Assembly: GCA_964016885.1 (NCBI GenBank) | Contig: OZ024743.1 | Location: 105,028,001-105,092,000, forward strand | Reading direction: 5' to 3' | DNA length: 64,000 nt | Source: Eledone cirrhosa | Taxonomy: Eukaryota | In this document: in pieces, positions 580-35,400 of the stretch | Layout: each line of letters opens with the position of its first letter | How positions within the stretch are numbered: the stretch's first letter is position 1 | Notes under the pieces: generated by a model | What the model was told of the DNA's origin: nothing | Database searches by the model: none | Seen by the model: the letters and a program-made list of their open reading frames with translations, nothing else | Made by a program: the position numbers and the translations under genes

Positions 580-1235
580 GGTATGTGGGAAGAAGGTGGA
601 AAGTGTAATGCATATGGTGAGTGCCTGTGGCATGCTCGTGTAGAGGGTATATAAAAAGCGTCAACATAAAATGTGCTTACACCCCCATTGGTCTTTATGC
701 AAAAAATATGCGTTTGCAATCACTGAGAAATGGTATCAACACAAACCAGAAAGGTTCCTAGAAAATCAGACTATAAAACTCTTGTGGGACTTAACAATAC
801 AGACAGATAGAGTTCCTCAAAATACAGGACCAGACATAATTTTGATGGAGAAAGGAACTCAAAGCAGGTGTTTGTTGATCGATTTAGCTTGCATAGGAGA
901 CAATTACATCAATTGTAATAAAAACGAGAAAAATCTAAAGTATGCAGACTTGAGAATAGCTGTCGAGAGAATGTTGAATATAAAAGCGAGAGTTGTATCA
1001 ATTGTGATTGAAGCACTTGGGTCGGTGACAGAAAACTTCCAGAAAAACATTGATAGAATTGGAATCAGCCCCCGAATTACGGCATTGTAAAACAACCTTT
1101 GGGAACAGCAAATATCTTGCGGAAAGTATTGTGGTTACATAACTTGATAGGGAGTCAATTAAATGATCTGGTGTTAATAAGCTCATCATTGTTCAAATGA
1201 TTAATAATAATAATTGCTTCTACTTTTTGGCACAA

Positions 1236-2360: not shown

Positions 2361-2710
2361 TTTGATAATGATGATACTGAGAGAGAAAAAGATGATAAAA
2401 GATACTGCTGAAAATGATAGTGCTTTTCATGATAATAATAAGTGAACGCAGATAGCTATTATACAAATCTCACCGAACGAGATATAGCAGTATCTTCCAT
2501 ATTTGAATTAAATTTTCATTGTTTGGTTAAAAAGTTGTTAAGAGAAAGTTCATGGAGATTGTTACGTTTTTACTAGAACGTAACATTAGAGTGAAATAAA
2601 TGTTAATTCTCTATTAACTCTTAACATCCTGCAATAATTTAGCAGAAAATACCTCAAACAAGATTTGTTAATTCAAATGATTAGAGTATCTTTACTATGG
2701 ACAGAACCTC

Positions 2711-4080
2711 ATGAAAATGTGCTATGCAACCAGGCAGTTCTTCAATAGCTGCCCATCGGAACCGGCATACAGGGACTCCTGGCACCTCATTGTCAAGCTT
2801 GACATGAGGAATGCCTTCAACTCTTTACGCCGGGATCATCTGTTCGAGGCCTACCTCAGCCGAGCCCCCTCTGCCTACCCGCTGGCCTACCTGTCATATG
2901 GAGTCCCGAGCATGCTCCTTGCTGCTGATACGGTCATACCCTCGGCTACTGGGGTCCAACAGCTTTGCCGGCGTATCTGTCATCGGTAACCTCGTGCCGC
3001 ATCCTCGTCAGCAGGGTTCTTCAAAACACAACAGAACCCTCTGTGTTCAGAGAACGTGAGGCGGCCTGTGAGACGTGGGACAGGCTGGGACTTAGCCCAG
3101 TAGAGGGCCGTCCTTCTTCTCCCCCTGTTGACGTCAAGTACCCCCAACGCACTTGGGATGCAATCCAGTGCAGCCTGGCCTCAGACAGGCTCATGCGCCA
3201 GCTCGACCAGCACCGCCTTGCTTGTTTCCGTGCGGCCTCCAAACCCCACAGTAGTGCCTGGCTCCATGCCCTGCCCTCCTCCACTGGCACGCAACTAGAC
3301 AAACATAGCCTGCGAATCGGCGTTTCCCTGAGGCTCGGCCTCCGGATCTGCCAGCCACACCAATGTCGCTGCGGTTCCACCGTGGACTCTTTCGGCCTCC
3401 ACCCGCTTTCCTGTCGCCACAGTGCCGACCGCATTCCACGCCATGCTGCCCTCAACGAGATCATTAAGCATGGCTTGGACGCTGCAGGCTTCCCTTCCCA
3501 GCTCGAGCCGGTGGGGCTGGATCGAGGGGACGGCAAAAGGTCAGATGGCATGACCATCTTCCCGTTCCGCGGTGACAAACCCCTCGTCTGGGATGCCACA
3601 TGCACCGACATTTTCTGCAGCCGCAACCTGGTGCAGTCTGCGACTGACCCAGGTTCTGCTGCACGTCGGGCTGAGGGGGCCAAACTCCTCAAAAACCGTT
3701 CGCTCTCCGACAGGTTTGCGGTCGTACCCCTGGCAGTGGAGACTTCTGGTGTCCTCGGGCCCAGGGTAACCTCCTTACTCACCACCATAGGCGCTGAGCT
3801 GGCCAGTCGCAGGTGTGAGCCCCGCGAGCTGGCGTGGCTTTTACAGCGCGTCTCCCTTGCCGTCCTACGGGGAACCGCCTTCTCCATTCTGTCCGCCGGG
3901 GCTGTGGGTGGGCCCCATCGCGTACCGTTCTAGTTGTTGTATACAGATATTAACTTATCAATCCATTGTCCTAATCCAAAAGTTAAATGCTTATTATTTT
4001 TTCGCTTTTTAGGTTTATATTTTTCTAGTTTTTCCTTCTATCAACTCCAAATTTTAATAAAATGACTGCATAACAAAACA
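2711..4080 (+). mobile_element. CRE-clade non-LTR retrotransposon, 5'-truncated and internally deleted (RT fragment plus zinc knuckle and RLE, then 3' UTR)
   Basis: ORF 2711-2989 has VKLDMRNAFNSLRRD and SATGVQQ (RT motifs). ORF 2965-3933 has LPAYLSS..AWLHALPS..CRCG..HPLSC..RHAALNEII..EPVGLDRGDGKRSDG..LVWDATC..VPLAVETSGVLG..LLQRVSLAVLRG. GC-rich island in AT-rich flanks. Confidence 0.88.
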
Positions 4081-9599: not shown

Positions 9600-10340
9600 T
9601 TGTTATGGTGTAGTGCTGGTGGTAGTGCAGTGTAGGTGATTGGGGGGGGGGGGGGTCGTTGTCGGTTTTTGTGGTAGTTTTGGTGGTGGTTGTATGCTTT
9701 GATGGTAGTTGTATAGTTAGTTGTAGTCGTGGTGCTGTTTTATGTGAACGGTGGTGGTTGTAGTAATGGTGGTGGTCTTAATTGTGGTGGTGATTGTTGT
9801 AGTGATGATGATTATTGTAGTGATGGTGGGGATAGTAATGGTGGAGGTTGTTGTAGTGGTGGTGATTGTTGTAGAGGCGATGGTTGGTGTAGTGGCGGTG
9901 GTGATTCTAGTAGTTGTGGTGATTGTAATGGTCGTGGTTATTGTAGTAGTGGTGGTGTTGATTGTAATGGTGATGGTTGTAGTAGTTGTAGTGGTTATTG
10001 TAATATTAGTGGATGTTGTAATGGTGGTGGTTGTTGTAGTGGTGGTGATTGTTGTAGTGGTGATGGTGATTGTAATTGTGGTGTCGGTTCTCATGCTAAT
10101 AATGTTTGTGTTAGTGATGTTGGTAGTTGTAACATTGCTGGTTGCAGTGTTCTTAGTGGTGTTGGTGGTGTTGGTAGCGTTGTTTGTTGTTATAGTAGTT
10201 GTTGTTTTGTTGATTGTTGTAGCGGTGTTAGTTGTGTTGCTATTACTGGCATTAGTGTTAGTGGTTGTGGTATTGGTGTTGGTGGTTGTGGTGTTGGTGT
10301 TAGTGGTATTGATGTTAGTGGTGTTGATATTAGAGGTGTA
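9600..10340. repeat. Cryptic GTG/GTA/GAT/GTT low-complexity tract
   Basis: GT-rich degenerate triplets that give Val/Gly-rich pseudo-ORFs. Confidence 0.85.
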
Positions 10341-12120
10341 GGTGGTGTAGTATATTGTAGAGATGTGGTGTTGTTTATTGTAGTGATGTGGTGTTGTTTA
10401 TTGTAGAGGTGGTGTAGTATATTGTAGAGATGTGGTGTTGTTTATTGTAGAGCTGGTGTAGTATATTATAGAGATATGGTGTTGTTTATTGTAGCGGTAA
10501 TATAGTATATTGTAGAGGTAGTGTAGTATACTGTAGAAGCGGTGTAGTATATTGTAGAGGTAGTGTAGTATATTGTAGAGGTAGTGTAGTATATTGTAGA
10601 GGTGGTGTAGTATATTTTAGAGGTATATTGTTGAGGTAGTGTAGTATATACACTACAATATACTACACTACTTCTACAATATACTACACCACCTCTACAA
10701 TATACTACACTACTTCTACAATATACTACACTACCTCTACAATATACTACACTACCTCTACAATATACTACACCGCTTCTACAGTATACTACACTACCTC
10801 TACAATATACTATATTACCGCTACAATAAACAACACCACAGCTCTGCAATATACTACACCAGCTCTACAATAAACAACACCACATCTCTACAATATACTC
10901 CACCACCTCTACAATAAACACACCACATCTCTACAATATGCTACACCACCTACACCTCTAATATCAACACCACTAACATCAATACCACTAACACCAACAC
11001 CACAACCACTAACACCAATACCACAACCACTAGTGTAGTATATTGTAGAGGTGGTGTAGTACATTGTAGAGGTATATTGTAGAGGTAGTTTAGTACATTG
11101 TAGAGGTAGTGTAGTATATTGTAGAGGTGGTGTAGTATATTGTAGAGGCGGTGTAGTATATTGTAGAGGTGGTGTAGTATATTGTAGAGGTGCTGTAGTA
11201 TATTGTAGAGGTATATTATAGAGGTAGTGTAGTATATTGTAGAGGTAGTGTAGTATATTGTAGAGGTAGTGTAGTATATTGTAGAGGTAGTGTAGTATAT
11301 TGTAGAGGTGGTGTAGTATATTGTAGAGGTGGTGTAGTATATTGTAGAAGTGCTGTAGTATATTGTAGTAGTATATTGTAGAGGTGGTGTAGTATATTGT
11401 AGAGGTATATTGTAGAGGTAGTATAGTATATTGTAGAGGTGGTGTAGTATATTGTAGAGGTGGTGTAGTATATTGTAGAGGTATATTGTAGAGGTAGTAT
11501 AGTATATTGTAGAGGTGGTGTAGTATATTGTAGAGGTGGTGTAGTATATTGTAGAGGTATATTGTAGAGGTAGTATAGTATATTGTAGAGGTGGTGTAGT
11601 ATATTGTAGAGGTAGTGTAGTATATTGTAGAGGTGGTGTAGTATATTGTAGAGGTGGTGTAGTATATTGTAGAAGTGCTGTAGTATATTGTAGTAGTATA
11701 TTGTAGAGGTGGTGTAGTATATTGTAGAGGTATATTGTAGAGGTAGTATAGTATATTGTAGAGGTGGTGTAGTATATTGTAGAGGTGGTGTAGTATATTG
11801 TAGAGGTGGTGTAGTATATTGTAGAGGTGGTGTAGTATATTGTAGAGGTAGTGTAGTATATTGTAGAGGTGATGTAGTATATTGTAGAGGTGGTGTAGTA
11901 TATTGTAGAGGTGGTGTAGTATATTGTAGAGGTGGTGTAGTATACTGTAGAGGTGGTGTAGTATATTGTAGAAGTGGTGTAGTATATTGTAGAGGTGGTG
12001 TAGTATATTGTAGAGGTGGTGTAGTATATTGTAGAGGTGGTGTAGTATATTGTAGAGGTGGTGTAGTATACTGTAGAGGTGGTGTAGTATATTGTAGAGG
12101 TGGTGTAGTATATTGTAGAA
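10340..12120. repeat. 21-bp minisatellite (GTAGTATATTGTAGAGGTGGT)n with an internal inverted segment
   Basis: 21-nt period; 10651-11032 is on the opposite strand. Confidence 0.95.
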
Positions 12121-12779
12121 CTGTGGTGCTGTTTATCGTTTTATCATTATTAGTGATGGTAATAGTGGTGATTGTGTCGTTGTTTGTTGATGTGATGTTA
12201 GTGGTGTTGGTGTTCGTGTTGTTGGTGGTGATTGTGGTGTTGTGTGTTGGTGTGGTGTTAGTAATGTTGGTGTTAATGGTGCTGGTGTTAGTGTTGTTGG
12301 TACTGATTGTGTCGTTGTTTGTGGCTGTGGTGTTAGTAGTGTTGATGTTAGTAGTATTGGTGTTAGTGGTGGTGATTGTGGCGTTGTGTATCGTTATGGC
12401 CCTAAAACAACAGTGGATTGTTCACGCTGATGTATGATCTAGAGGAGAAAAACCAAATCGATAGACCGTGATTTGGGCTACCAATATCAGTTATCATGGA
12501 TAAGAAATACTTGCTAAGACCACAATAGTGGCGTGGGAACGTCTAACTGACTAGTATTTAGAGGATATGGGGTTTTCACAGGTCGAAATATATCTTTAAA
12601 CGCGCTACTTAATGTTTAGGTTTCAAGTACGAGAGAGGTAAGGTGATACCAGCATTAACCATCCTGCGTTTAAGCATTATCAATTTAATAAGTTTGTCTT
12701 TATCTCATTCGCCCTCTCAACATACACCTCTACAAAAACTCTCTATATATAATATTTAACATGAACACAAATAATTTTT

Positions 12780-14451: not shown

Positions 14452-14500
<49 letters not shown>

Positions 14501-14505
<5 letters not shown>

Positions 14506-14971
14506 GATAACAAGTTATCGTTATAGGTAATCCAGTTAGAGGTTGTGAGTACTTTGCGCCGTGGATAGTTTTAACGTACGGCTTTGTTTGACTCAACAAG
14601 GTGCTTCCATAGTTATGCAGCGAGTTCGCGGTAATTTCTATGCAAATTATACTTGGAGTAATAATAGTGAAATGATGGAGAGTAACATGGTTGGCTGTAC
14701 AATAAGGGGCTTTATTTAAAGTACTGACAATCGTTTCGTTGATCAGATGAGTCCAGAGTTCGCTAATCGCTTGAAGTTTCGTCACTCGATCTCCAATACA
14801 TTATATCTACGTACTCTGATGCGTTGACCAGAGGTAAATAATGAATTGGAGATCGAGTGACGCAACTTCAAGCAATTAGCGAACTCTAGACTCACCTGAT
14901 CAACGAAACGATTGTCAGTACTTTAAATAAAGCCCCTTATTGTACAGCCAACCATGTTACTCTTCATTCTT

Positions 14972-14978
<7 letters not shown>
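14501..14978. mobile_element. Non-coding hammerhead-bearing element family 1 (Penelope-like/retrozyme type) with ~140-bp inverted arms
   Basis: 14664-14804 is the reverse complement of 14838-14978 with a few mismatches; flanked by (TA)n at 14454-14503 and 14976-15017; contains a hammerhead fold at 14811-14921. Confidence 0.7.
14811..14921 (+). ncRNA. Type I hammerhead ribozyme motif (A9C core variant, palindromic minimal stem III)
   Basis: Stem I GTACT(14811-15)/AGTAC(14917-21); core CTGATGC; stem II GTTGAcCAG/CTGaTCAAC; GAAA 14905-08; stem III ACGATTGT; GUC cleavage triplet ending at 14916. Confidence 0.72.
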
Positions 14979-15019
<41 letters not shown>

Positions 15020-15086
15020 CAGGTTTAGCAAATAATGAAAAAGTTTCAAAATAAATTTTAAAAAATTGACTTTACTTACTATAGTT

Positions 15087-15170
15087 ACCTTTACCGAATC
15101 GGTTTCGAATCTCAAAAATAAACGGAGACCATACAGCCTTCGTTGCAAAGAAAGATTCTCGTCAGAAGGT
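15087..15170 (-). ncRNA. Type I hammerhead ribozyme (inverted copy)
   Basis: Reverse complement of 15734-15817 with core and all three stems intact. Confidence 0.85.
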
Positions 15171-15733
15171 TCTTTTCATTCGAAGAATATAAAATTCATG
15201 AATTTAAATTACGAACTAGCGCTATCCAAAACTGTTCCCGAGATGAGAGTAAATGAAGTGGAATCAATTTTTTCAAGGGCCGAAGTAAAGATAGAGGCAG
15301 AGGGAGGTAGGTCAAACGGCCACCACTATCACTAGCAGCAGTCGGGACGACCAAATTTTTTTCTCAACATAGAGGAGAATAGTAATAATAGGATATGTGT
15401 TCCTACACGCACAAAGCGCTAAGGGACACATGTATTGTCCAACCATATGCCAATTTGGTTCAATGGCAGGTTAATAAATTAACGAGCCACAACATATATA
15501 ATCAGGTTTAGCAAATAATGATAAAGTTTCAAAATAAATTTTAAAAAATTTGGTCGTTCCGACTGCTGCTAGTGATAGTGGTAGCCGTTTGACCTACCTC
15601 CCTCTGCCTCTATCTTTACTTCGGCCCTTGTAAAAATTGATTCCACTTCATTTACTCTCATCTCGGGAACAGTTTTGGATAGCGCTAGTTCGTAATTTAA
15701 ATTCATGAATTTTATATTCTTCGAATGAAAAGA

Positions 15734-15817
15734 ACCTTCTGACGAGAATCTTTCTTTGCAACGAAGGCCGTATGGTCTCCGTTTATTTTTGAGATTCGAA
15801 ACCGATTCGGTAAAGGT
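15734..15817 (+). ncRNA. Type I hammerhead ribozyme
   Basis: Stem I ACCTT(15734-38)/AAGGT(15813-17); core CTGACGA(15739-45); stem II GAATCT(15746-51)/AGATTC(15792-97) closing a 40-nt loop; GAAA(15798-801); stem III ACCG-ATT-CGGT; GUA triplet with predicted cleavage after 15812. All conserved core positions match the consensus. Confidence 0.88.
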
Positions 15818-15996
15818 AACTATAGTAAGTAAAGTCAATTTTTTAAAATTTATTTTGAAACTTTTTCATTATTTGCTAAACCTGATTATATATGTTCTGG
15901 CTCGTTAATTTATTAACCTGCCATTGAACCACATTGGCATATGGTTGGACAATACATGTGTCCCTTAGCGCTTTGTGCGTGTAGGAACACATATCC

Positions 15997-16042
<46 letters not shown>

Positions 16043-16096
16043 AAGTTAAATAAAAGTCAAATGATTAAAATTTAGCTTCGTTTATTACTGCGTTTA

Positions 16097-16097
<1 letters not shown>

Positions 16098-16127
<30 letters not shown>

Positions 16128-16190
16128 CATACATACATACATACATACATACATACATACATACATACATACATGTATATAAATATATAC

Positions 16191-16231
<41 letters not shown>

Positions 16232-16262
16232 CGTGTTTGTGTGTATGTATGTATACATATAT
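16098..16262. repeat. (CATA)n and (TA)n microsatellites
   Basis: Direct reading. Confidence 0.95.
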
Positions 16263-16269
16263 ATTTATG

Positions 16270-16878
16270 TCAGGACACCAGTTGGTGCTACTGGTAACAT
16301 GTATCCCGGTACAACTCGTCTCATGGTCGGGTCGTTGGCGACTAAACTGGCAACCCCACCAAGGTTTCTTGGTGAGGAGAGTGACTTTGGACATCCTGCA
16401 GAACTAAAAACAAAACATGTCAAAGGGCAAGGGAGCTCTTAAGAGTCAATGGCCATCCAAAATCACCGGGAGAGATGACCCCTTAGCCTTTGTCAAGGCA
16501 GAATTCTAGGAGAAGGAAAACTCTGATATAACACCTGCAACCCTGATGGTATCCAATGATGTTGACTTGTTCTTCTTTTTGGTAAATATCATCTTGGTTA
16601 AGAGAGTGGGACTGGTTTTGTGCAGTGCCTTTGCTCACTATAAACGCTTCACGGCACAGGCATTGCTTTATATCTGGAGATCTCTCTGCACTTGTCGTCA
16701 CATGGTACCATGGGCCCAGCACTATGTGTCAATAATTGTCACAAGTGTAGTGTTTGTACCATAGTTTTCAAGTCGCTGGCTGGACTAAAAAGTCACACTC
16801 GTTCAGCGCATCGGTAGGGGTTCTCCTACATGGATATAAAGTAGTGGCCGTACTCGAAAACGAGTTTGCAGCCACCAT
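16270..16878 (+). mobile_element. Non-autonomous RTE-derived element (5' UTR joined to the 3' end)
   Basis: Shares its 5' block (GCTACTGGTAACATG..CAACC..GGACATCCTGCAG..AAAGGGC..GAGTCAA) with copies at 35770 and 37685. The 3' part encodes CSVCTIVFKSLAGLKSHTRSAH (RTE-like C-terminal zinc finger) and ends GTGGCCGTACTCGAAAACGAG..GCAGCCACCAT. Confidence 0.7.
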
Positions 16879-18590: not shown

Positions 18591-18783
18591 CGGCCGAGCA
18601 TTGGCAGTATCGGTAGAGGGTCGGACGCTATGCATTGACGCATAGAGTTACGGCCCTTGCCATTCTGAGTTCAAATCCCGTGGAGGTTAACTTTGCCTTT
18701 CATCCTTACGGGGTCGATGAAATAAAGTACCAGTAATGCACTAGGTTAATGCTGGCCTTGTGCCAAAAGTAGAAACAATTATT
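18591..18783 (+). mobile_element. SINE family A, full length with 16-bp TSD
   Basis: A box TGGCAGTATCGGTAGA, B box GAGTTCAAATCC, core TTGCCTTTCATCCTTACGGGGTCGATGAAATAAAGTACCAG; TTATTACTATTATATA repeated at 18573-88 and 18779-94. Confidence 0.9.
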
Positions 18784-19393
18784 ACTATTATATATATATC
18801 AATATTATAGAAAGAGTTCCAGGAATGATTATCCTTTAATATTTGCATGCGTTAAATATCTCGGTCTACATTGTCCCCGGTGTCCTTCATTTTCCAAACG
18901 CAAGTTGGTATTTGAAGGATATATGACTGCTATTTGAAGCGCAATTTTTGGGTCGACAAAATTATTTCGCAAACCCTGAAATATATCACATTTATAGACT
19001 TCATTAAGATAACATAACTAACGTGAAACTGCAATAACAGGAGATGGAAATGGAACATGGTTTAAGCTCAACAAAAAAGATTATCTCTTACTTAAGAAGA
19101 ATTTTCTATGTATACATAAGACTATCGGTATGTGTTAATACCAAAACGAAAGCTATAGCCATTGATCATGACCTCTCATCAATCTTACTATTAAATGTTT
19201 GCTTAGAAATTCTCGATTACTAAAAGTAAGATTACAGTATATTAGCATGTATGTGTGAGCGTGTGTACATGGTTTGATATATCGAGAACTATATTTAATT
19301 CTTTACACATAAACACATACACATGCAGCTGCTTATACATACATACATATATACATACATGTATAAACACACACTTATGTACACTTATGTACA

Positions 19394-22110: not shown

Positions 22111-22189
22111 ATCAGTGTCACCATTCTCATAATTCCTCCCAATTCCACCATCACAACAGCTATCACCATAAGCCACACTCACCACTCCC

Positions 22190-23302
22190 ACTTTCATCAT
22201 CACCCCCCCCATCACCTGCTCCCCCACCACCTCCACCACCACGCTCTTCTCCACAACCTAAACTACCACTTACATCTCCACCACCAACACCTTCATCATT
22301 ACCGCCACCACCATCATCAACATCACCACCCCCCATCACCTGCTCCCCCACCACCTCCACCACCACGCTCTTCTCCACAACCTAAACTACCACTTACATC
22401 TCCACCACCAACACCTTCATCATTACCGCCACCACCATCATCAACATCCCCCCCCCCCATCATCTGCTCCCCCACCACCTCCACCACAACGGCCTTCTCC
22501 ACAACCTAAACTACCACTTACATCTCCACCACCAACACCTTCATCATTACCGCCACCACCATCATCAACATCATCACCCCCCATCATCTGCTCCCCCACC
22601 ACCTCCACCACAACGGCCTTCTCCACAACCTAAACTACCACTTACATCTCCACCACCAACACCTTCATCATTACCGCCACCACCATCATCAACATCATCA
22701 CCCCCCATCATCTGCTCCCCCACCACCTCCACCACAACGGCCTTCTCCACAACCTAAACTACCACTTACATCTCCACCACCAACACCTTCATCATTACCG
22801 CCACCACCATCATCAACATCATCACCCCCCATCATCTGCTCCCCCACCACCTCCACCACAACGGCCTTCTCCACAACCTAAACTACCACTTACATCTCCA
22901 CCACCAACACCTTCATCATTACCGCCACCACCATCATCAACATCATCACCCCCCATCATCTGCTCCCCCACCACCTCCACCACAACGGCCTTCTCCACAA
23001 CCTAAACTACCACTTACATCTCCACCACCAACACCTTCATCATTACCGCCACCACCATCATCAACATCATCACCCCCCATCATCTGCTCCCCCACCACCT
23101 CCACCACAACGGCCTTCTCCACAACCTAAACTACCACTTACATCTCCACCACTAACACCTTCATCATTACCGCCACCACCATCATCAACATCATCACCCC
23201 CCATCATCTGCTCCCCCACCACCTCCACCACAACGGCCTTCTCCACAACCTAAACTACCACTTACATCTCCACCACTAACACCTTCATCATTACCGCCAC
23301 CA
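22190..23302. repeat. 124-bp tandem repeat, 9 copies
   Basis: ACAACCTAAACTACCACTTACATCTCC recurs at 22253, 22377, 22501, 22625, 22749, 22873, 22997, 23121 and 23245. Confidence 0.97.
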
Positions 23303-26250
23303 TCTTCACCATCACCATCATCACCATCAACAACATTACTACCATCACCATCAGCATTATCATCAACAACAATACCAACACCATAGCTATCAGTATCATC
23401 AATACCATTATCGCCATCATCATCACCATCACCGTCATCACCATTATCATCTTCACCAACACCATCACCATCACCATCACCGCAATCACCACCATCACCA
23501 CCACCACCACCATCACCGCAATCACCACCATTACCAACATCACCACTACCATCACCGCAATCACCACCATCACTACCATTACCACCATCACCATCACCAT
23601 CACCACTATTACCACCATCACCACCACCATCACCACCACCATCACCATCACCATCACCGCAATCATCACCATTACCACCATCACCACCACCATCACCACC
23701 ACCATCACCACCATTACCACCATTACCACCATCACCATCACCATCACCACCATTACCACCATCACCACCACCATCACCATCACCACCATTACCACCATCA
23801 CCATCACCATCACCACCATCACCACCATTACCACCATCACCATCACCATCACCATCACCACCATCACCATCACTACAATTACCACCATCACCATCACCAT
23901 CACTACCATTACCACCACCACCATCACCACCACCATCACCACCACCATCACCATCACCACCACCACCACCATCACCACCATCACCACCATCACCACCACC
24001 ATCACCACCATCACCACCATCACCACCATCACCACCACCATCACCACCAACATCACCATCACCACCACCACCACCATCACCACCATTACCATCACCACCA
24101 TCACCACCATCACCACCACCATCACCACCACCACCACCACCATCACCACCATTACAATCACCACCATCACCACCACCACCACCATCATCACCATCACCAC
24201 CATCACCACCACCACCACAACCATCACCACCATCACCACCACCACCATCACCACCATTACCATCACCACCATCACCACCACCACCATCACCACCATCACC
24301 ACCATCACCACCACCACCATCACAACCATTACCATCACCACCATCACCACCACCACCCTCACCACCATTACCATCACCACCATCATTACCACCACCATCA
24401 CCACCATTACCATCACCACCATCACCACCACCACCACCACCATCAACACCACCACCACCACCATCAGCACCATCAACACCATTACCACCATTACCATCAC
24501 CACCATCAACATCACCACCATCACCACCACCACCACCACCACCACCATCAACACCACCACCACCACCATCAGCACCATCAACACCATTACCATCACCACC
24601 GTCACCACCATGACCATCACCACCACCATCATCACCACCATCACCACCATTACCATCACCACCATCACCACCATTACCATCACCACCATCACCACCATTA
24701 CCATCACCACCATCACCACCATCACCACCACCATCATCACCACCATCACCACCATCACCACCACCATCATCACCACCATCACCACCATTACCATCACCAC
24801 CATCACCACCATTACCATCACCACCATCACCACCACCATCATCACCACCATTACCACCATGACCATCACCACCACCACCATCACCACCATCACCACCATA
24901 TCCACCATCACCATCACCTCCATCACCACCACCACCATTACCGCCACCACCATTACCACCACCACCACCATCAACACCACCACCATCACCACCACCATCA
25001 ACACCACCACCACCATCACCACCATCACCACCACCACCATCACCATCACCACCACCACCACCACCACCACCACCACCACCATTACCACCATCACCACCAT
25101 CACCACCACCACCATCACCACCATCACCACCATTACCACCATCACCACCATCACCACCATCACCACCATCACCACCACCACCATCACCACCATTACCACC
25201 ATTACCACCATCACCACCATCACCACCATCACCACCACCACCACCACCATCACCACCATTACCACCATTACCACCATCACCACCATCACCACCATCACCA
25301 CCATCACCACCACCACCATCACCACCACCACCACCACCACCACCACCATTACCACCATCACCACCATCACCACCACCACCATCACCACCATCACCACCAT
25401 TACCACCACCATCACCACCACCACCATCACCACCATCACCACCATTACCACCACCACCACCATCACCAACACCACCACCACCACCACCACCACCACCATC
25501 ACCACCATCACCACCATTACAACCATCACCACCACCATCACCACCATCACCACCACCACCACCACCATCACCACCACCACCACCACCACCACCATCACCA
25601 CCATTACCACCACCACCACCATCACCACCACCACCACCACCACCACCACCACCATCACCACCATTACAACCATCACCACCACCACCACCATCACCACCAC
25701 CACCACCACCACCACCATCACCACCATTACCACCACCACCACCACCACCACCACCACCACCATCACCACCATCACCACCATTACAACCATCACCACCACC
25801 ACCACCATCACCACCATCACCACCACCACCACCACCATCACCACCACCACCACCACCACCACCATCACCACCATTACCACCACCACCACCACCACCACCA
25901 CCACCACCACCACCACCACCATCACCACCATCACCACCATTACAACCATCACCACCACCACCACCATCACCACCATCACCACCACCACCACCACCATCAC
26001 CACCACCACCAACACCACCACCACCACCACCACCACCACCACCACCATCACCACCACCACCACCACCACCACCACCACCACCACCACCATCACCACCATT
26101 ACAACCATCACCACCATCACCACCATCACCACCACCACCACCACCACCACCACCACCATCACCACCACCACCACCACCACCACCATCACCACCATTACCA
26201 CCATCGCCACCATCGCCACCATTATTATCATCTCCATCATCATCACAATC
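23302..26250. repeat. (ACC/ATC/ATT)n cryptic trinucleotide satellite, ~2.9 kb
   Basis: Direct reading. Confidence 0.97.
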
Positions 26251-26468
26251 ACTCCATGTTTGATTTATATTAATTTGCTGCGAATTATTAAATGTTAATA
26301 TATTAATGAAATATTTTCACTCCTGCAATGTGGTGGAATTTCATGATTTACAATCGTTGACGCCCCCTCCTCCTCCTCCTCCTCCTCCTCCTCCTCCTCC
26401 TCCTCCTCCTCATCATCATCATCATCATCTACCCCCCCCCACACACACACACAATGTCATTATTTTTG

Positions 26469-26670: not shown

Positions 26671-26715
26671 TAACAACAATAACAAAAGTAATATCAATCA
26701 GGTGAGAGATAAAAG

Positions 26716-27575
26716 TTTCTTATATAGGCATAAGGCCAACAATATTGGGGGAAGGGGAAAGTCGATTAAATCGATGCCAGCGAGTGACTGGTACTTTATT
26801 TTATCGACCCCGTAAGGATAAAAGGCAAAGTTAACCTCCGCGGGATTGAAGTCAGAACATAAAAGGCCGTAACTCTATGCTGCAAAGCATGACGTCCGAT
26901 CCTCTACTAATATTGCCAATCCACCGCCCTGAGAAATAATAATAAAGGTTTTTGATTGATTTACTGGGTTAGAGAGGGTAAAGTTGATTAAAGTGACCCA
27001 GTATTTGGCTGGTACTTTATTTCATCGCTGGAAACTAAGTTGAAAGAGAAAGATTGGAAAAAATGGCGCAAAACATTTTGTCCGACGCTCTACCAACCCT
27101 GCCAATCCACTGCCCTAGAAACAAGAATATTTTCTACAATGGCACACACATGGTCAGTTATTTTGTGGGAGAAAAACAGTCAGTTTTATCGACCCCAGTA
27201 TTTGACAGTTTTTTTTTTATTTTACCAACCCAAGAAGCATAAGAAGCAAAGTTGCGGTTATCGGGATTTCAACTCAAAATATAAAGAGCTAGAAAAAATA
27301 CCGCAATGGCATTTTATCCAACGTTCTATCAATTACTACGAAACATTATATCGGTCACTATACAAATTACTGCGTAACCAAATACTACGAAGTATTATAT
27401 CGATCACTCTACAAATTACAGTAATAATTGTTTCTATTTTTTGCACATGGCCAGCAATTACCCAGTGCATTACTGGTATTTTATTTTATCGGCTCTATAA
27501 GGATGGAAAGCAAAGTTAACCACAGCAGAATTTGAACTCAGAACGTAAAGAGACGTAACTCCAGCTGCAAAGTAA
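26716..27575 (-). mobile_element. Cluster of SINE family A copies (one full length at 26716-26930, several degenerate)
   Basis: Repeated CTGGTACTTTATTTTATCGACCCCGTAAGGAT..GGCAAAGTTAACC, with heads TGCCAATCCACCGCCCT. Confidence 0.85.
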
Positions 27576-30100: not shown

Positions 30101-30290
30101 GGAGGCATTTGGCAGTATCGGTAGAGGGTCGGACGCAATGCTTTCCAGCATAGTTAAGTCCCTTTACGATCTGAGTTCAAATCCCGCCGAGGTTGACTTT
30201 GCCTTTCATCCTTACGAGGTCGATAAAATAAAGTACCAGTAATGCACTGGGTATTTGCTGGCCTTGTGCCTAAATTAGAAACAATTATTT
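30101..30290 (+). mobile_element. SINE family A, full length (short-tail variant)
   Basis: A box, B box GAGTTCAAATCC, core and tail GCCTTGTGCCTAAATTAGAAAC. Confidence 0.9.
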
Positions 30291-31459: not shown

Positions 31460-32160
31460 GAGGCCAACAATTTGAGACGGAGTGGAAAGTCGTTTATATT
31501 GTTGACCTTAGTACTTGACTGGTACTTTATTTTAGCGAACCTGGAAGGATAAAAGGCAAAGTTAACCTCGGCAGGAATTGAAAATCAAGTTTAGCTTTCA
31601 TCATTCAGGGGTCGATAAAATAAAGTACCTTTCAAATACTGAGGTTGAGGTAAACAACTTTTACCCATCAGCCATATTTTTGACATTGTGCCTAAATTAG
31701 AAATCATTATTGAGTCGGACGCCATGTTTTGCAGCAAAGAGTTACGGCCCTTTATGGTCTGAGTTCAAATCTCGCTGGGGTTAACTTTGCCTTTCATCCT
31801 TATGGGGTCGATGAAATAAAGTACCAGTAATACCCTGGGATAATTGTTGGTCTTGTGCTAAAAGTAGAAACAATTATTAATAGTAAAGCGGTGGATTGGC
31901 AGTATCGGTAGAGCGTCGGGCGCCATACTTTGCAGCATAGAGTTACGGCTCTTTATTATCTGATTTCAAATCCCGCGAGGTCGATACAATAAAGTACCAG
32001 TCACGCACTGCAGTCGATTTAATCGACTTGCCACTCCCCCCCAAATTGCTGGCCTTGTGCCTAAAGTAGAAACAATTATTATTAGTAGTAGGCAGAATTG
32101 GTAGAGCACCGGACAAAATGCTTTATGGCATTCAGTCACGTCTTTCTATGTTCTGAGTTC
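31460..32160. mobile_element. Cluster of SINE family A copies (one minus, then head-to-tail plus copies)
   Basis: Core motif at ~31520(-), 31600, 31790 and 31980(+); heads at 31886 and 32090. Confidence 0.85.
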
Positions 32161-32784: not shown

Positions 32785-33660
32785 TGTATGTTCTTTTGGT
32801 TTCATTATTTTATAAATTTCTACCAATAGAGAAAGAAAGTCCATTTATAACATAGACACAAGACTCTTTATTGAAATTTAGACATCAACTTGGTAAATAT
32901 GTATGTATGTCTGCATGCGTCTGTGTGTGTGTGTGTGTGCAAGTATGGGTGTTATAGTATGTGTGGATCTGTATGCTTTGAGTTATATGTGTACACATGC
33001 ATATGTTTTGTATCTATACATGTGCATATGCAGTTATTACGTTCAGAACTTTTGGAATGTTTTACATATTTTTACATTTCCATTAATAGATTGTATTTGT
33101 AGCTTCTTAACTAGTCGTATTCTTTCTGTTTCTGTGAAGCCCGGCTTCTCAAGATTTGTACTGAGGCAGTTACTAACATATCCCAGTGTCCCAATAATCA
33201 CAGGTATAAATCTGAAAGTATAATCAGGGTGGAGTACCTGCAGATTTCTCATTAGTTCTGCATAATATTTAATATTATATTGACATCATCTGGGCAGCTG
33301 TCTTGCACTACAGTACATGCCTTCTTTTCCCTGTCCCATATCATTATATCTGGTCTGTTATGCTTGCATTTTAGAGGGTTTTTTACTGGAACATTCCACC
33401 AATACTCTTTCATATTATGCATGTATATGTCTTCCACTTTGCTATAACTTTTAATGTTTATTGTCGGGACTATATTTTCCACGGAGTTTGACCACTACAT
33501 CCTGCCTCATAGATAGATAGTACCGTGATAATATCTTTGAACAGTTGCTTATGACATGGGTGATTTCTTCGATGTTAATTCTTCAGAGTCTGCATTTGTT
33601 ATCACAACTAGGTGTTTTGCCTGCATCCCTATCTCTTTTGTGAATCAGGCATTTGCAGTT
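32785..33660 (-). mobile_element. R4/Dong-like non-LTR retrotransposon 3' fragment (family with TACA tail)
   Basis: Minus strand reads CDNKCRL..SRYYLSMRQDVV..EYWWNVPVKNPLKCKHNRPDIMIWDREKK..SCPDDVNI..MRNLQVLHPDYTFRFIPVIIGTLG (zinc knuckle and RLE), then a 3' UTR ending in ACATACAT. Confidence 0.85.
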
Positions 33661-33893: not shown

Positions 33894-33984
33894 GTTTTGT
33901 AGGGAGAGGAGAGTTGATTATATCGACCTCAATATTTGACTACATTTTCTAATATATTAGAAATTATTATTATAGTTTAGGAGA

Positions 33985-34208
33985 GGGCGGTGGATTGGCA
34001 GTATCGGTAGAGAGTCGGACACCACGCTTTGCAACATAGAGTTACGGCCATTTACCGTCTGAGTTCAAATCTCGCCGAGGTTAACTTTGCCTTTCATCCT
34101 TACGGGGTCGATAAAATAAAACACCAGTATCGTACTGGCGTCGATTTAATCGATTTTCCCCTACCCCTCAAATTACTGGCCTTATGTCTAAATTAGAAAT
34201 TATTATTA
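33985..34208 (+). mobile_element. SINE family A, full length (long-tail variant) with 26-bp flanking direct repeat
   Basis: Complete A box, B box, core and tail; ATTAGAAATTATTATTATAGTTTAGG at 33956-81 and 34192-217. Confidence 0.92.
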
Positions 34209-34594: not shown

Positions 34595-35400
34595 CCTGGC
34601 TGACTGGACAGGCGAAGGTCTCTGTCCCCCCAGTATACAAATGTCCAATGCAACTGGGACGACATCAAATGTAGGTTTTCTTTCAGGCGAATCGAGTTTT
34701 GCTTGGACTAACACCGACTCACCTGTCTCCGCCCCGCATTACACCCAAACAGCGGCGTACGGCTCAACTCGGTGACCTCCTCATCAACCGGTACTATTCT
34801 TGAGTGGCATCCGAGTGTCTCAACACCACGACCTCCGCGTGTGTGAGCCACTTAAATGCTGTTGCGGGGCGGTCGTTGACAAGTTCGGCTTGTACCCAGA
34901 GCGCAGGCTGGTTCTCACGACATGCCATTCTCAACGACATATTGAGAAGGAGCCTGGACGCAGCTGCTTCCCATCACAACTGGAACCAGCGTGCCTTGAC
35001 CGCGGAGATAGCAAGCGCACCGGTGGAATCACCCTCTTCCCATTCGAAGGGAGTAGATCCCTCATCTGGGACGCCACATGTGACACGTTCTCCGCGACCA
35101 ACATAGTCGCTTCGGCCACAAACCCCGATACTGCGACCCGCAATGTAAGTGGAAACGAAGATAAACAAATACTGGGGATTGTCTGGTTCTCTTCGCACCG
35201 GTCGCCGTTGAGACCTCAGGCGTACTTGAACCCCGTACAGCTGAGCTCCTCTGCAAGATCGGAACGTCAGCAGCCCGTCTGAGGTAGGAATCCTGTTAGG
35301 AGCCCCGTTAGGTAGAGTGGCTATTGCAGCGGGTGTCGCTGGCCATTGTCCTCGGGCATGCTTTTGCGGTTCTGTCCGCGGGGTCCTCCTCTTACCGCCA
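34595..35400 (+). mobile_element. Second CRE-clade fragment (RLE region), frameshifted
   Basis: Homologous to 3070-3900: QCNWDDIKC, SSTGT, CCCGAVVDKFGLYP, RHAILNDILRRSLDAA, FPSQLEPACLDRGDSKRTGGITLFPFEGSRSLIWDATC, PVAVETSG, WLLQRVSLAIV. Confidence 0.85.

Follow-up and report, generated by a model that had tools for sequence, protein, structure and literature searches.

At this locus a 483-nt unit with a predicted hammerhead ribozyme stands in both orientations between two TA microsatellites, which raises the question of what RNA was copied into DNA there (a circle, a head-to-tail multimer or a plain linear RNA) and by what kind of element. The window, i.e., the whole stretch of DNA that was analysed (64 kb), is repeat-rich DNA of animal type.

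Architecture of the insertion and its surroundings

Block B was found as a direct repeat of 57 nt (15011-15067 and 15494-15550) with a spacing of 483 nt, and the block order given in the preliminary description was reproduced: B-A-u-C(hammerhead)-B on the minus strand from 15550 to 15011, and C(hammerhead)-B-A on the plus strand from 15543 to 16002. Two inverted repeats are contained in this arrangement, one of 351 nt (15011-15361 and 15543-15893) and one of 166 nt (15385-15550 and 15837-16002); the repeat pairs within the window gave blastn E values of 1e-22 to 1e-178. The copies had been said to differ at only a few bases, and the counts agree with this (1/57 nt for the direct repeat, 4/351 nt and 3/166 nt for the inverted ones); the arms of the insertion are 1.4% apart. 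The microhomology at which the orientation had been proposed to switch, AAAAAATT at 15543-15550, is indeed common to both arms. Block u is simply the 23 nt (15362-15384) that occur once at the locus, with no separately defined module; no further copy of the 483-nt unit was found elsewhere in the 64-kb window.

The left arm carries a pseudo-LTR by partial tandem, B recurring 483 nt upstream, and an inverted 5'-truncated copy is joined to it head-to-head at the 5' end. The 3' ends of both arms face outward into (TA)n; a tail extension is present at the right end only (A, 109 nt), the left end being without a tail. The TSD is unreadable because both flanks are (TA)n. The left arm comprises 1.1 units; it extends through the predicted cut site and across the B-A junction, and 24 nt separate its end from where the next cut site upstream would lie. 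The coordinates of the features are collected in Table 1.

Table 1. Features of the insertion and its flanks (positions of the window; strand given where the feature has one).
Position	Strand	Feature	Contigs
14976..15017		(TA)21 microsatellite on the left, likely the target; it also flanks the neighbouring element on its right	
15011..15550	-	Left arm of 1.1 units, minus strand as sense: B (upstream copy, 5'-truncated)-A-u-C-B; tailless, running into (TA)n	
15017..15499	-	Single 483-nt unit in the order A-u-C-B, G+C 36%; its family has many copies in public runs	
15011..15067	-	Block B, with which the unit ends 3'; (TA)n follows at this end in other copies too	13 contigs of X1 at 15504
15087..15170	-	Left-arm hammerhead motif (type I), predicted to cut after 15092	
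15223..15240	-	REQFWI codons, left arm; possible remnant of a PLE GIY-YIG endonuclease end (unproven)	
15362..15384	-	u, 23 nt present once at the locus; divergent copies elsewhere cross u	
15385..15493	-	Block A, 5' part of the unit	
15494..15550	-	Incomplete copy of B upstream (pseudo-LTR from a partial tandem); starts 24 nt past the would-be upstream cut site	
15543..15550		8-nt overlap AAAAAATT of both arms; head-to-head inversion junction	
15543..16002	+	Right arm, 5'-truncated C-B, then a tail of 109 nt formed by A, up to (TA)n	
15664..15681	+	REQFWI codons, right-arm copy	
15734..15817	+	Right-arm hammerhead motif (type I), predicted to cut after 15812	
16000..16037		(TA)19 microsatellite, right flank	

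A second, unrelated element (14503-14975), built like the studied insertion, lies between (TA)24 and (TA)21. Its inverted arms are 141 nt long (14664-14804 and 14838-14978; 94%), only the left arm has a tail (~160 nt), and a hammerhead-like motif of type I on the plus strand (C3 at 14816, cut after 14916) has A9 changed to C and a very long helix II. The tailed arm of this element is continued by TATTATTAC, as at the A end of the studied unit, and it is in the right-hand TA flank of this element that the studied insertion is located.

Other features of the window were recorded as follows. Frames at 644-1087 (+) and 33046-33494 (-) were taken by us to resemble the C-terminal restriction-like endonuclease of R4/Dong or NeSL non-LTR retrotransposons, and a 334-codon frame at 2681-3930 (+), with a decayed relative at 34776-35279 (+), presumably resembles the ends of CRE-type non-LTR retrotransposons; no Pfam family was found in these frames. 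The left part of a G+C-richer segment between TA/TACA runs (16270-16875) recurs at 37623-37875 as a 77% copy, and at 16644-16814 the segment weakly matches a C2H2 zinc finger (E 0.00016, short of the curated cut-off); the segment is probably another mobile-element fragment. A dispersed repeat of ~190 nt, SINE-like in size, is present in at least 7 copies of 78-92% identity (18592-18791, 26709-26930, 30109-30289, 31714-31885, 33984-34206, 38235-38432 and 63113-63317), and long strand-skewed satellite arrays occupy 10318-12390, with inverted blocks around 10650, and 22139-26252.

The 483-nt family in public sequencing runs

Four of 15 runs (X1, X4, X5 and X13) were compared with one unit (15068-15550), runs X6-X12, of small shares, being left out; none of the 15 is on record as RNA, and they speak neither for nor against expression. 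Matches to the unit were given by 851 contigs of X1 (all likeness levels), 29 of X4 and 5 of X5 (another organism label), and by 2201 raw reads of X13. Among the 21 pieces listed, the A-u junction is bridged by at least 2 and the u-C junction by at least 3, with at least 31 letters on each side; these bridging pieces are divergent (10, 13 and 28 other letters). The B-A junction is bridged by at least 1 piece under the same rule and by at least 3 more with about 20 letters on one side, and the continuity of C-B is visible as go-back joints in contigs. Since all four junctions are crossed in other copies, every ring-closing junction exists outside the locus. The joining of the end of the unit to its start, as put forward in the preliminary description, is thus corroborated by the A-u junction in divergent copies elsewhere, which is not unique to the locus. 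The 483-nt unit is a real repeat and not a one-off join.

Loose ends running into (TA)n were observed at the B end in 13 contigs of X1 and at the A end in 1 contig of X4; X1 has 9 short AT-rich ends near 15402. Depth in X1 peaks at 117,524 at the start of A and reaches its minimum of 3,670 around u, sloping from both sides (summed contig depth, which is no copy number); the dip at u is less deep in X4 and X13. A minimum at u is as expected from 5' truncation plus staggered tail ends. Read-end pile-ups in X13 were considered as element ends and rejected, all 7 sites listed being AATT or CATG, i.e., library restriction cuts.

Both arms carry the same non-majority letter at 7/7 sites checked at which X1 mostly differs, and are for this reason assigned to one sub-lineage. 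No piece spanning the whole unit or two ribozymes was found among the pieces listed for the 4 runs, and no strand-change joint at 15550 among the joints listed; the runs may come from another individual. In X5, sense-strand C is joined to an antisense part of the ribozyme at one loose end (1 contig; 3 mismatches in 18, a likeness reached by 7/100 shuffles), which is a weak indication of a second inversion with another breakpoint. In one X5 contig the sequence before B shares, by eye, ~10 letters with the end of A; this B-containing contig could be a shorter, ribozyme-less deletion derivative in another organism.

Pattern scans for the unit gave 0 matches in metagenome contigs and 0 in viral contigs; 18 matches in prokaryote genomes were set aside as chance (uniform composition would give ~9; the 15 with a blastn hit all stay within 40 nt; (TA)8 in 0/18). 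No published description of the 483-nt family was found in literature searches; Repbase, Dfam or the supplements of the 2026 bioRxiv survey might list it. In the available text of the Octopus vulgaris repeat-annotation paper (PMC13282606), neither hammerheads nor retrozymes are mentioned.

Hammerhead motif and coding content

A complete type I hammerhead motif is present in each arm (C3 at 15739 (+) and 15165 (-)), in the order CUGACGA, helix II (7 bp, with a long hairpin inserted), GAAA, a near-palindromic short helix III, GUA and an open helix I of 5 bp; helices I/II/III of both motifs are of 5/7/4-5 bp. Perfect-core matches in the 64-kb window number 2, both in these arms, and the descriptor was matched by 0/5000 shuffles of the unit. 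Rfam gave 0 matches in the whole window at the gathering level; at E ≤ 10, 36 matches were obtained in 14500-16500, with no hammerhead among them. The motifs lie on opposite strands, 574 bp apart, with a helix II of 7 bp, a helix I of 5 bp and G-C at G10.1-C11.1. Hammerheads of Penelope-like elements (PLEs) show a helix II of 7-8 bp, a helix I of 4-5 bp, G10.1-C11.1 and a palindromic helix III, are often paired on opposite strands 100-700 bp apart, and are weak in vitro (PMC4209133); they have an extra nucleotide between 9 and 10.1 (PMC4209133), whereas the motif of the unit is without such a base.

A variant with a one-base deletion turns helix III into a perfect 10-nt palindrome; its depth was 10,942/85,570 in X1 and 36/39 in X4, and it was carried by 292/660 reads in X13. 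To go by the sequence, a perfectly palindromic helix III would suit a ribozyme working as a dimer. Folded as a circle, the unit was predicted to be 56% paired (58% in 60 shuffles; energy z -2.1, 3/60 as low), with pair probabilities of ~0.01/0.2/0.12 for helices I/II/III; the linear right arm folded better than 100/100 shuffles (z -3.8), via local hairpins. The locus has one ribozyme per strand, its transcript would contain a long hairpin, and no release of a monomer or circle from the locus is therefore expected. Splice-donor-like words were noted at 15813-15830 (+), GTAACT directly 3' of the ribozyme and GTAAGT 10 nt further; a 5'-UTR intron is known in PLE pseudo-LTRs (PMC8557442).

A search for REQFWI in the six frames of the window gave 2 matches only, both in the unit, on the sense strand, just upstream of the ribozyme; the stub lies 60-75 nt before the ribozyme, and its sense frame ends 33 nt before the ribozyme core. 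The motif was obtained in 12/20000 shuffles, a figure that is too favourable because the motif was picked after the sequence had been seen. Endonuclease ends of Neptune and Naiad are of the type E-K...R-E-x-aromatic-W-I...L-N (PMC8557442, supplement Fig. S2). In the left arm LEKI is found in a neighbouring frame, 25 nt upstream of REQFWI; the stub is without the conserved L-x-T-x-x-P-x-G between WI and LN, the WI-LN segment is 5 residues short, and W (15226) is replaced by a stop in about half of the X1 depth. Protein searches gave no relatives of the stub, Pfam no family, and PDB chance matches only, outside the motif. The chances that REQFWI is a true remnant of a PLE endonuclease end appear evenly balanced.

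The longest sense frame of the unit has 55 codons and no Pfam family; neither an RT nor a GIY-YIG family was found (Pfam) in the 150 of 152 window frames scanned. The ORF of a telomerase-like RT and a GIY-YIG endonuclease between pseudo-LTRs, by which an autonomous PLE is recognised, is absent, and no autonomous partner or Penelope ORF was found in the 64-kb window. A Penelope-like element that lost nearly all of its ORF is the likely source of the unit.

Template, insertion and relation to known systems

The evidence leans towards a single insertion in the TA microsatellite of a multicopy non-coding 483-nt repeat with a predicted hammerhead, a non-autonomous PLE of the non-LTR retrozyme type, copied by a borrowed Penelope RT-endonuclease from uncut head-to-tail RNA. 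Partial tandems, adjacent inverted 5'-truncated copies, one-end tails and a microsatellite bias are known from PLE insertions (PMC8557442), and a head-to-head overlap of 15 bp between an inverted and a direct pLTR has been described (PMC3846280). The purified PLE protein PAc, the only one so far examined in vitro, nicks and extends both strands of AT-rich target DNA, starts at two internal RNA sites, the distance between which is the tail, and mainly uses uncleaved RNA, cleavage being unneeded for insertion (PMC11167929). Published PLE tails are of 30-40 bp; that of the locus, 109 nt, is longer.

At the locus the enzyme would nick both strands of (TA)n; one cDNA would start at the B end and extend over 1.1 units, past the ribozyme site and the junction of units, and the start of the other would lie 109 nt farther along, at the A end (giving the 'tail'). 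The RNA start sites at the B and A ends, both TA-like, could pair with the target. The complementary cDNA 3' ends AAAAAATT and AATTTTTT (8 nt) would anneal, each priming the second strand of the other, and such mutual priming would produce the head-to-head inversion. This annealing of cDNA ends resembles twin priming in L1.

The left arm is longer than one unit and runs through the cut site; it is therefore likely that the template exceeded one unit and was continuous over the cut site, and a cut linear monomer is ruled out as template. Of the circular or multimeric RNA template proposed in the preliminary description, the excess over one unit is accordingly retained as likely, and the circle is indistinguishable from an uncut head-to-tail linear RNA; it is not implied, because both arms could be templated by a linear RNA of 643 nt (51 nt of B, one unit and A) with one ribozyme. 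According to the published retrozyme model, a dimer locus elsewhere would be transcribed, cut by the paired hammerheads and ligated to a 483-nt circle, and reverse transcription would go more than once round; for this insertion a circular template is considered possible rather than probable. A ligated circle templating more-than-unit cDNA, and hence head-to-tail PLEs, was proposed in 2014 (PMC4209133) and again in a 2020 review (PMC7761336), and circular forms of animal non-LTR retrozymes accumulate in coral, mussel and axolotl (PMC7229834). It agrees with a circle that the junctions C-B, B-A, A-u and u-C are all crossed by contigs of other copies, that the left arm, with its 1.1 units, crosses the cut site, and that the ribozyme core is intact in both arms; no end pile-up is listed at the cut site and X13 depth is level over 15068-15118, so that a cut linear monomer was not the main template. 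The same DNA is, however, predicted by an uncut linear RNA, the circular fold of the unit (56% paired against 58% in shuffles) is unlike the highly self-paired retrozyme circles, and the helix I/II/III pair probabilities are low (~0.01/0.2/0.12). Moreover, the ribozyme belongs to the PLE type, which is weak in vitro (PMC4209133), only 1/9 frog retrozyme dimers were cleaved (bioRxiv 10.64898/2026.07.22.740005), and the insertion by PAc needed no cleavage (PMC11167929).

An origin at the DNA level or in two steps, in which one copy was inserted and the inverted arm was added later by a second insertion, by cDNA fold-back (self-priming) or by repair, is regarded as distinctly unlikely. Of the 7 differences between the arms, compared with the X1 majority, 5 are private to the left arm, 1 probably to the right (two loose ends) and 1 is unassigned, which is in keeping with a later arm, but this skew lacks significance (p 0.13 to 0.45) and both arms carry the same sub-lineage letters. 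Self-priming is a published proposal for inversions of PLEs (PMC3846280), PAc is capable of inserting into its own pLTR (PMC11167929), and overlaps of 8 nt are not unusual, since 26 of the unit's 8-mers have their reverse complement in the unit; against this, a single fold-back from the left would yield C-B without the tail A, and one from the right B-A without u-C-B, and (TA)n is absent between the arms. An assembly artefact, in which a chimeric or fold-back read made the inverted arrangement out of a common repeat lying between two TA runs, is highly improbable. PLE structures of such a build trouble assemblies (PMC8557442), and the strand-change joint at 15550 is not among the joints listed for the 4 runs, the best of which contains 0.48 of the sampled words; these runs, though, may come from another individual. 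The arms differ at 7 sites, at least 5 of which leave one arm with the majority letter of the family, the junction lacks symmetry, 181 nt separating the long arms, and the neighbouring unrelated element (14503-14975) is built alike, all of which speaks for a genuine insertion.

A bolder version of the circular reading, that a single internal deletion turned a Neptune-type Penelope element into a 483-nt circular RNA parasite, which kept the last endonuclease codons and was rewritten into DNA by priming from both TA-repeat strands, one cDNA running more than once round, is thought unlikely; if true, one locus would show the birth of a retrozyme from a PLE, rolling reverse transcription and two-strand priming together.

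The value of the family is that of a clean test case for Penelope-type insertion. The making of tandem, inverted and tailed PLE insertions and the role of PLE hammerheads are not yet settled in print (PMC8557442, PMC11167929). The family is small, young and multicopy, it has two defined TA-like start sites, and its junction fits two-strand priming with one annealing step; it may also connect a retrozyme-type unit to a Neptune ORF. A tally of start sites, truncation points and overlap lengths over thousands of insertions in one genome could separate a circular from a linear template.

Compared with non-LTR retrozymes of animals (Cervera and de la Pena 2020, PMC7229834; bioRxiv 10.64898/2026.07.22.740005), the unit is alike in being non-coding, with one type I hammerhead, a G+C content below 45% (here 36%), multiple copies and the end joined to the start. 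In the 2026 survey (Li, Clavereau and Pollet, bioRxiv 10.64898/2026.07.22.740005) retrozymes are tied to PLE pseudo-LTRs and proposed to be non-autonomous PLEs, with units of 51-972 bp; 483 nt falls within this range and is longer than the circles of 170-400 nt shown in invertebrates. The ribozyme is canonical there and of the PLE type here, no partner loop for tertiary contacts being seen in the unit; the circles are highly self-paired, unlike the unit (56% against 58% in shuffles), a trait that is not part of the definition given in the survey. Two consecutive ribozymes are required there for an active retrozyme; the studied locus is without them and falls outside that definition. An LTR retrozyme of plants, recognised by a type III hammerhead in LTRs together with a primer-binding site and a polypurine tract, was also considered and rejected: the open helix is helix I, so that the hammerhead is not of type III, and there is no LTR pair.

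With endonuclease-bearing PLEs that carry hammerheads (PMC8557442, PMC3846280, PMC4209133, PMC11167929) the insertion shares the pseudo-LTR partial tandem, the head-to-head inverted 5'-truncated copy, the short overlap, the one-end tail, the AT-rich or microsatellite target, the long helix II and the palindromic helix III, and the possible endonuclease-end stub of the unit lies at the expected place; the unit differs in having no RT/endonuclease ORF and in a tail of 109 nt vs 30-40. PAc starts at RNA sites non-homologous to the cut DNA (PMC11167929), whereas the 3' ends of the unit are TA-like and could pair with the target. Naiad PLEs (PMC8557442) share with the unit the (TA)n target, tandem and inverted insertions and the tail; canonical hammerheads are absent from them as described there, and their endonuclease is N-terminal, which would be at odds with a stub near the 3' end. 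The non-autonomous Chlamys PLEs, of which MRC1 (PMC8557442) is an example, differ from the unit in that they are green algal, target (CA)n or (C)n and belong to a clade mostly without hammerheads. Five short motifs of the unit were absent from the PMC8557442 supplement. The nearest endonuclease-bearing PLE clade is most likely Neptune. By the structural tests for PLEs, the unit appears to work like a non-autonomous PLE, and the 483-nt family likely adds one member to the known class of short hammerhead-bearing Penelope derivatives.
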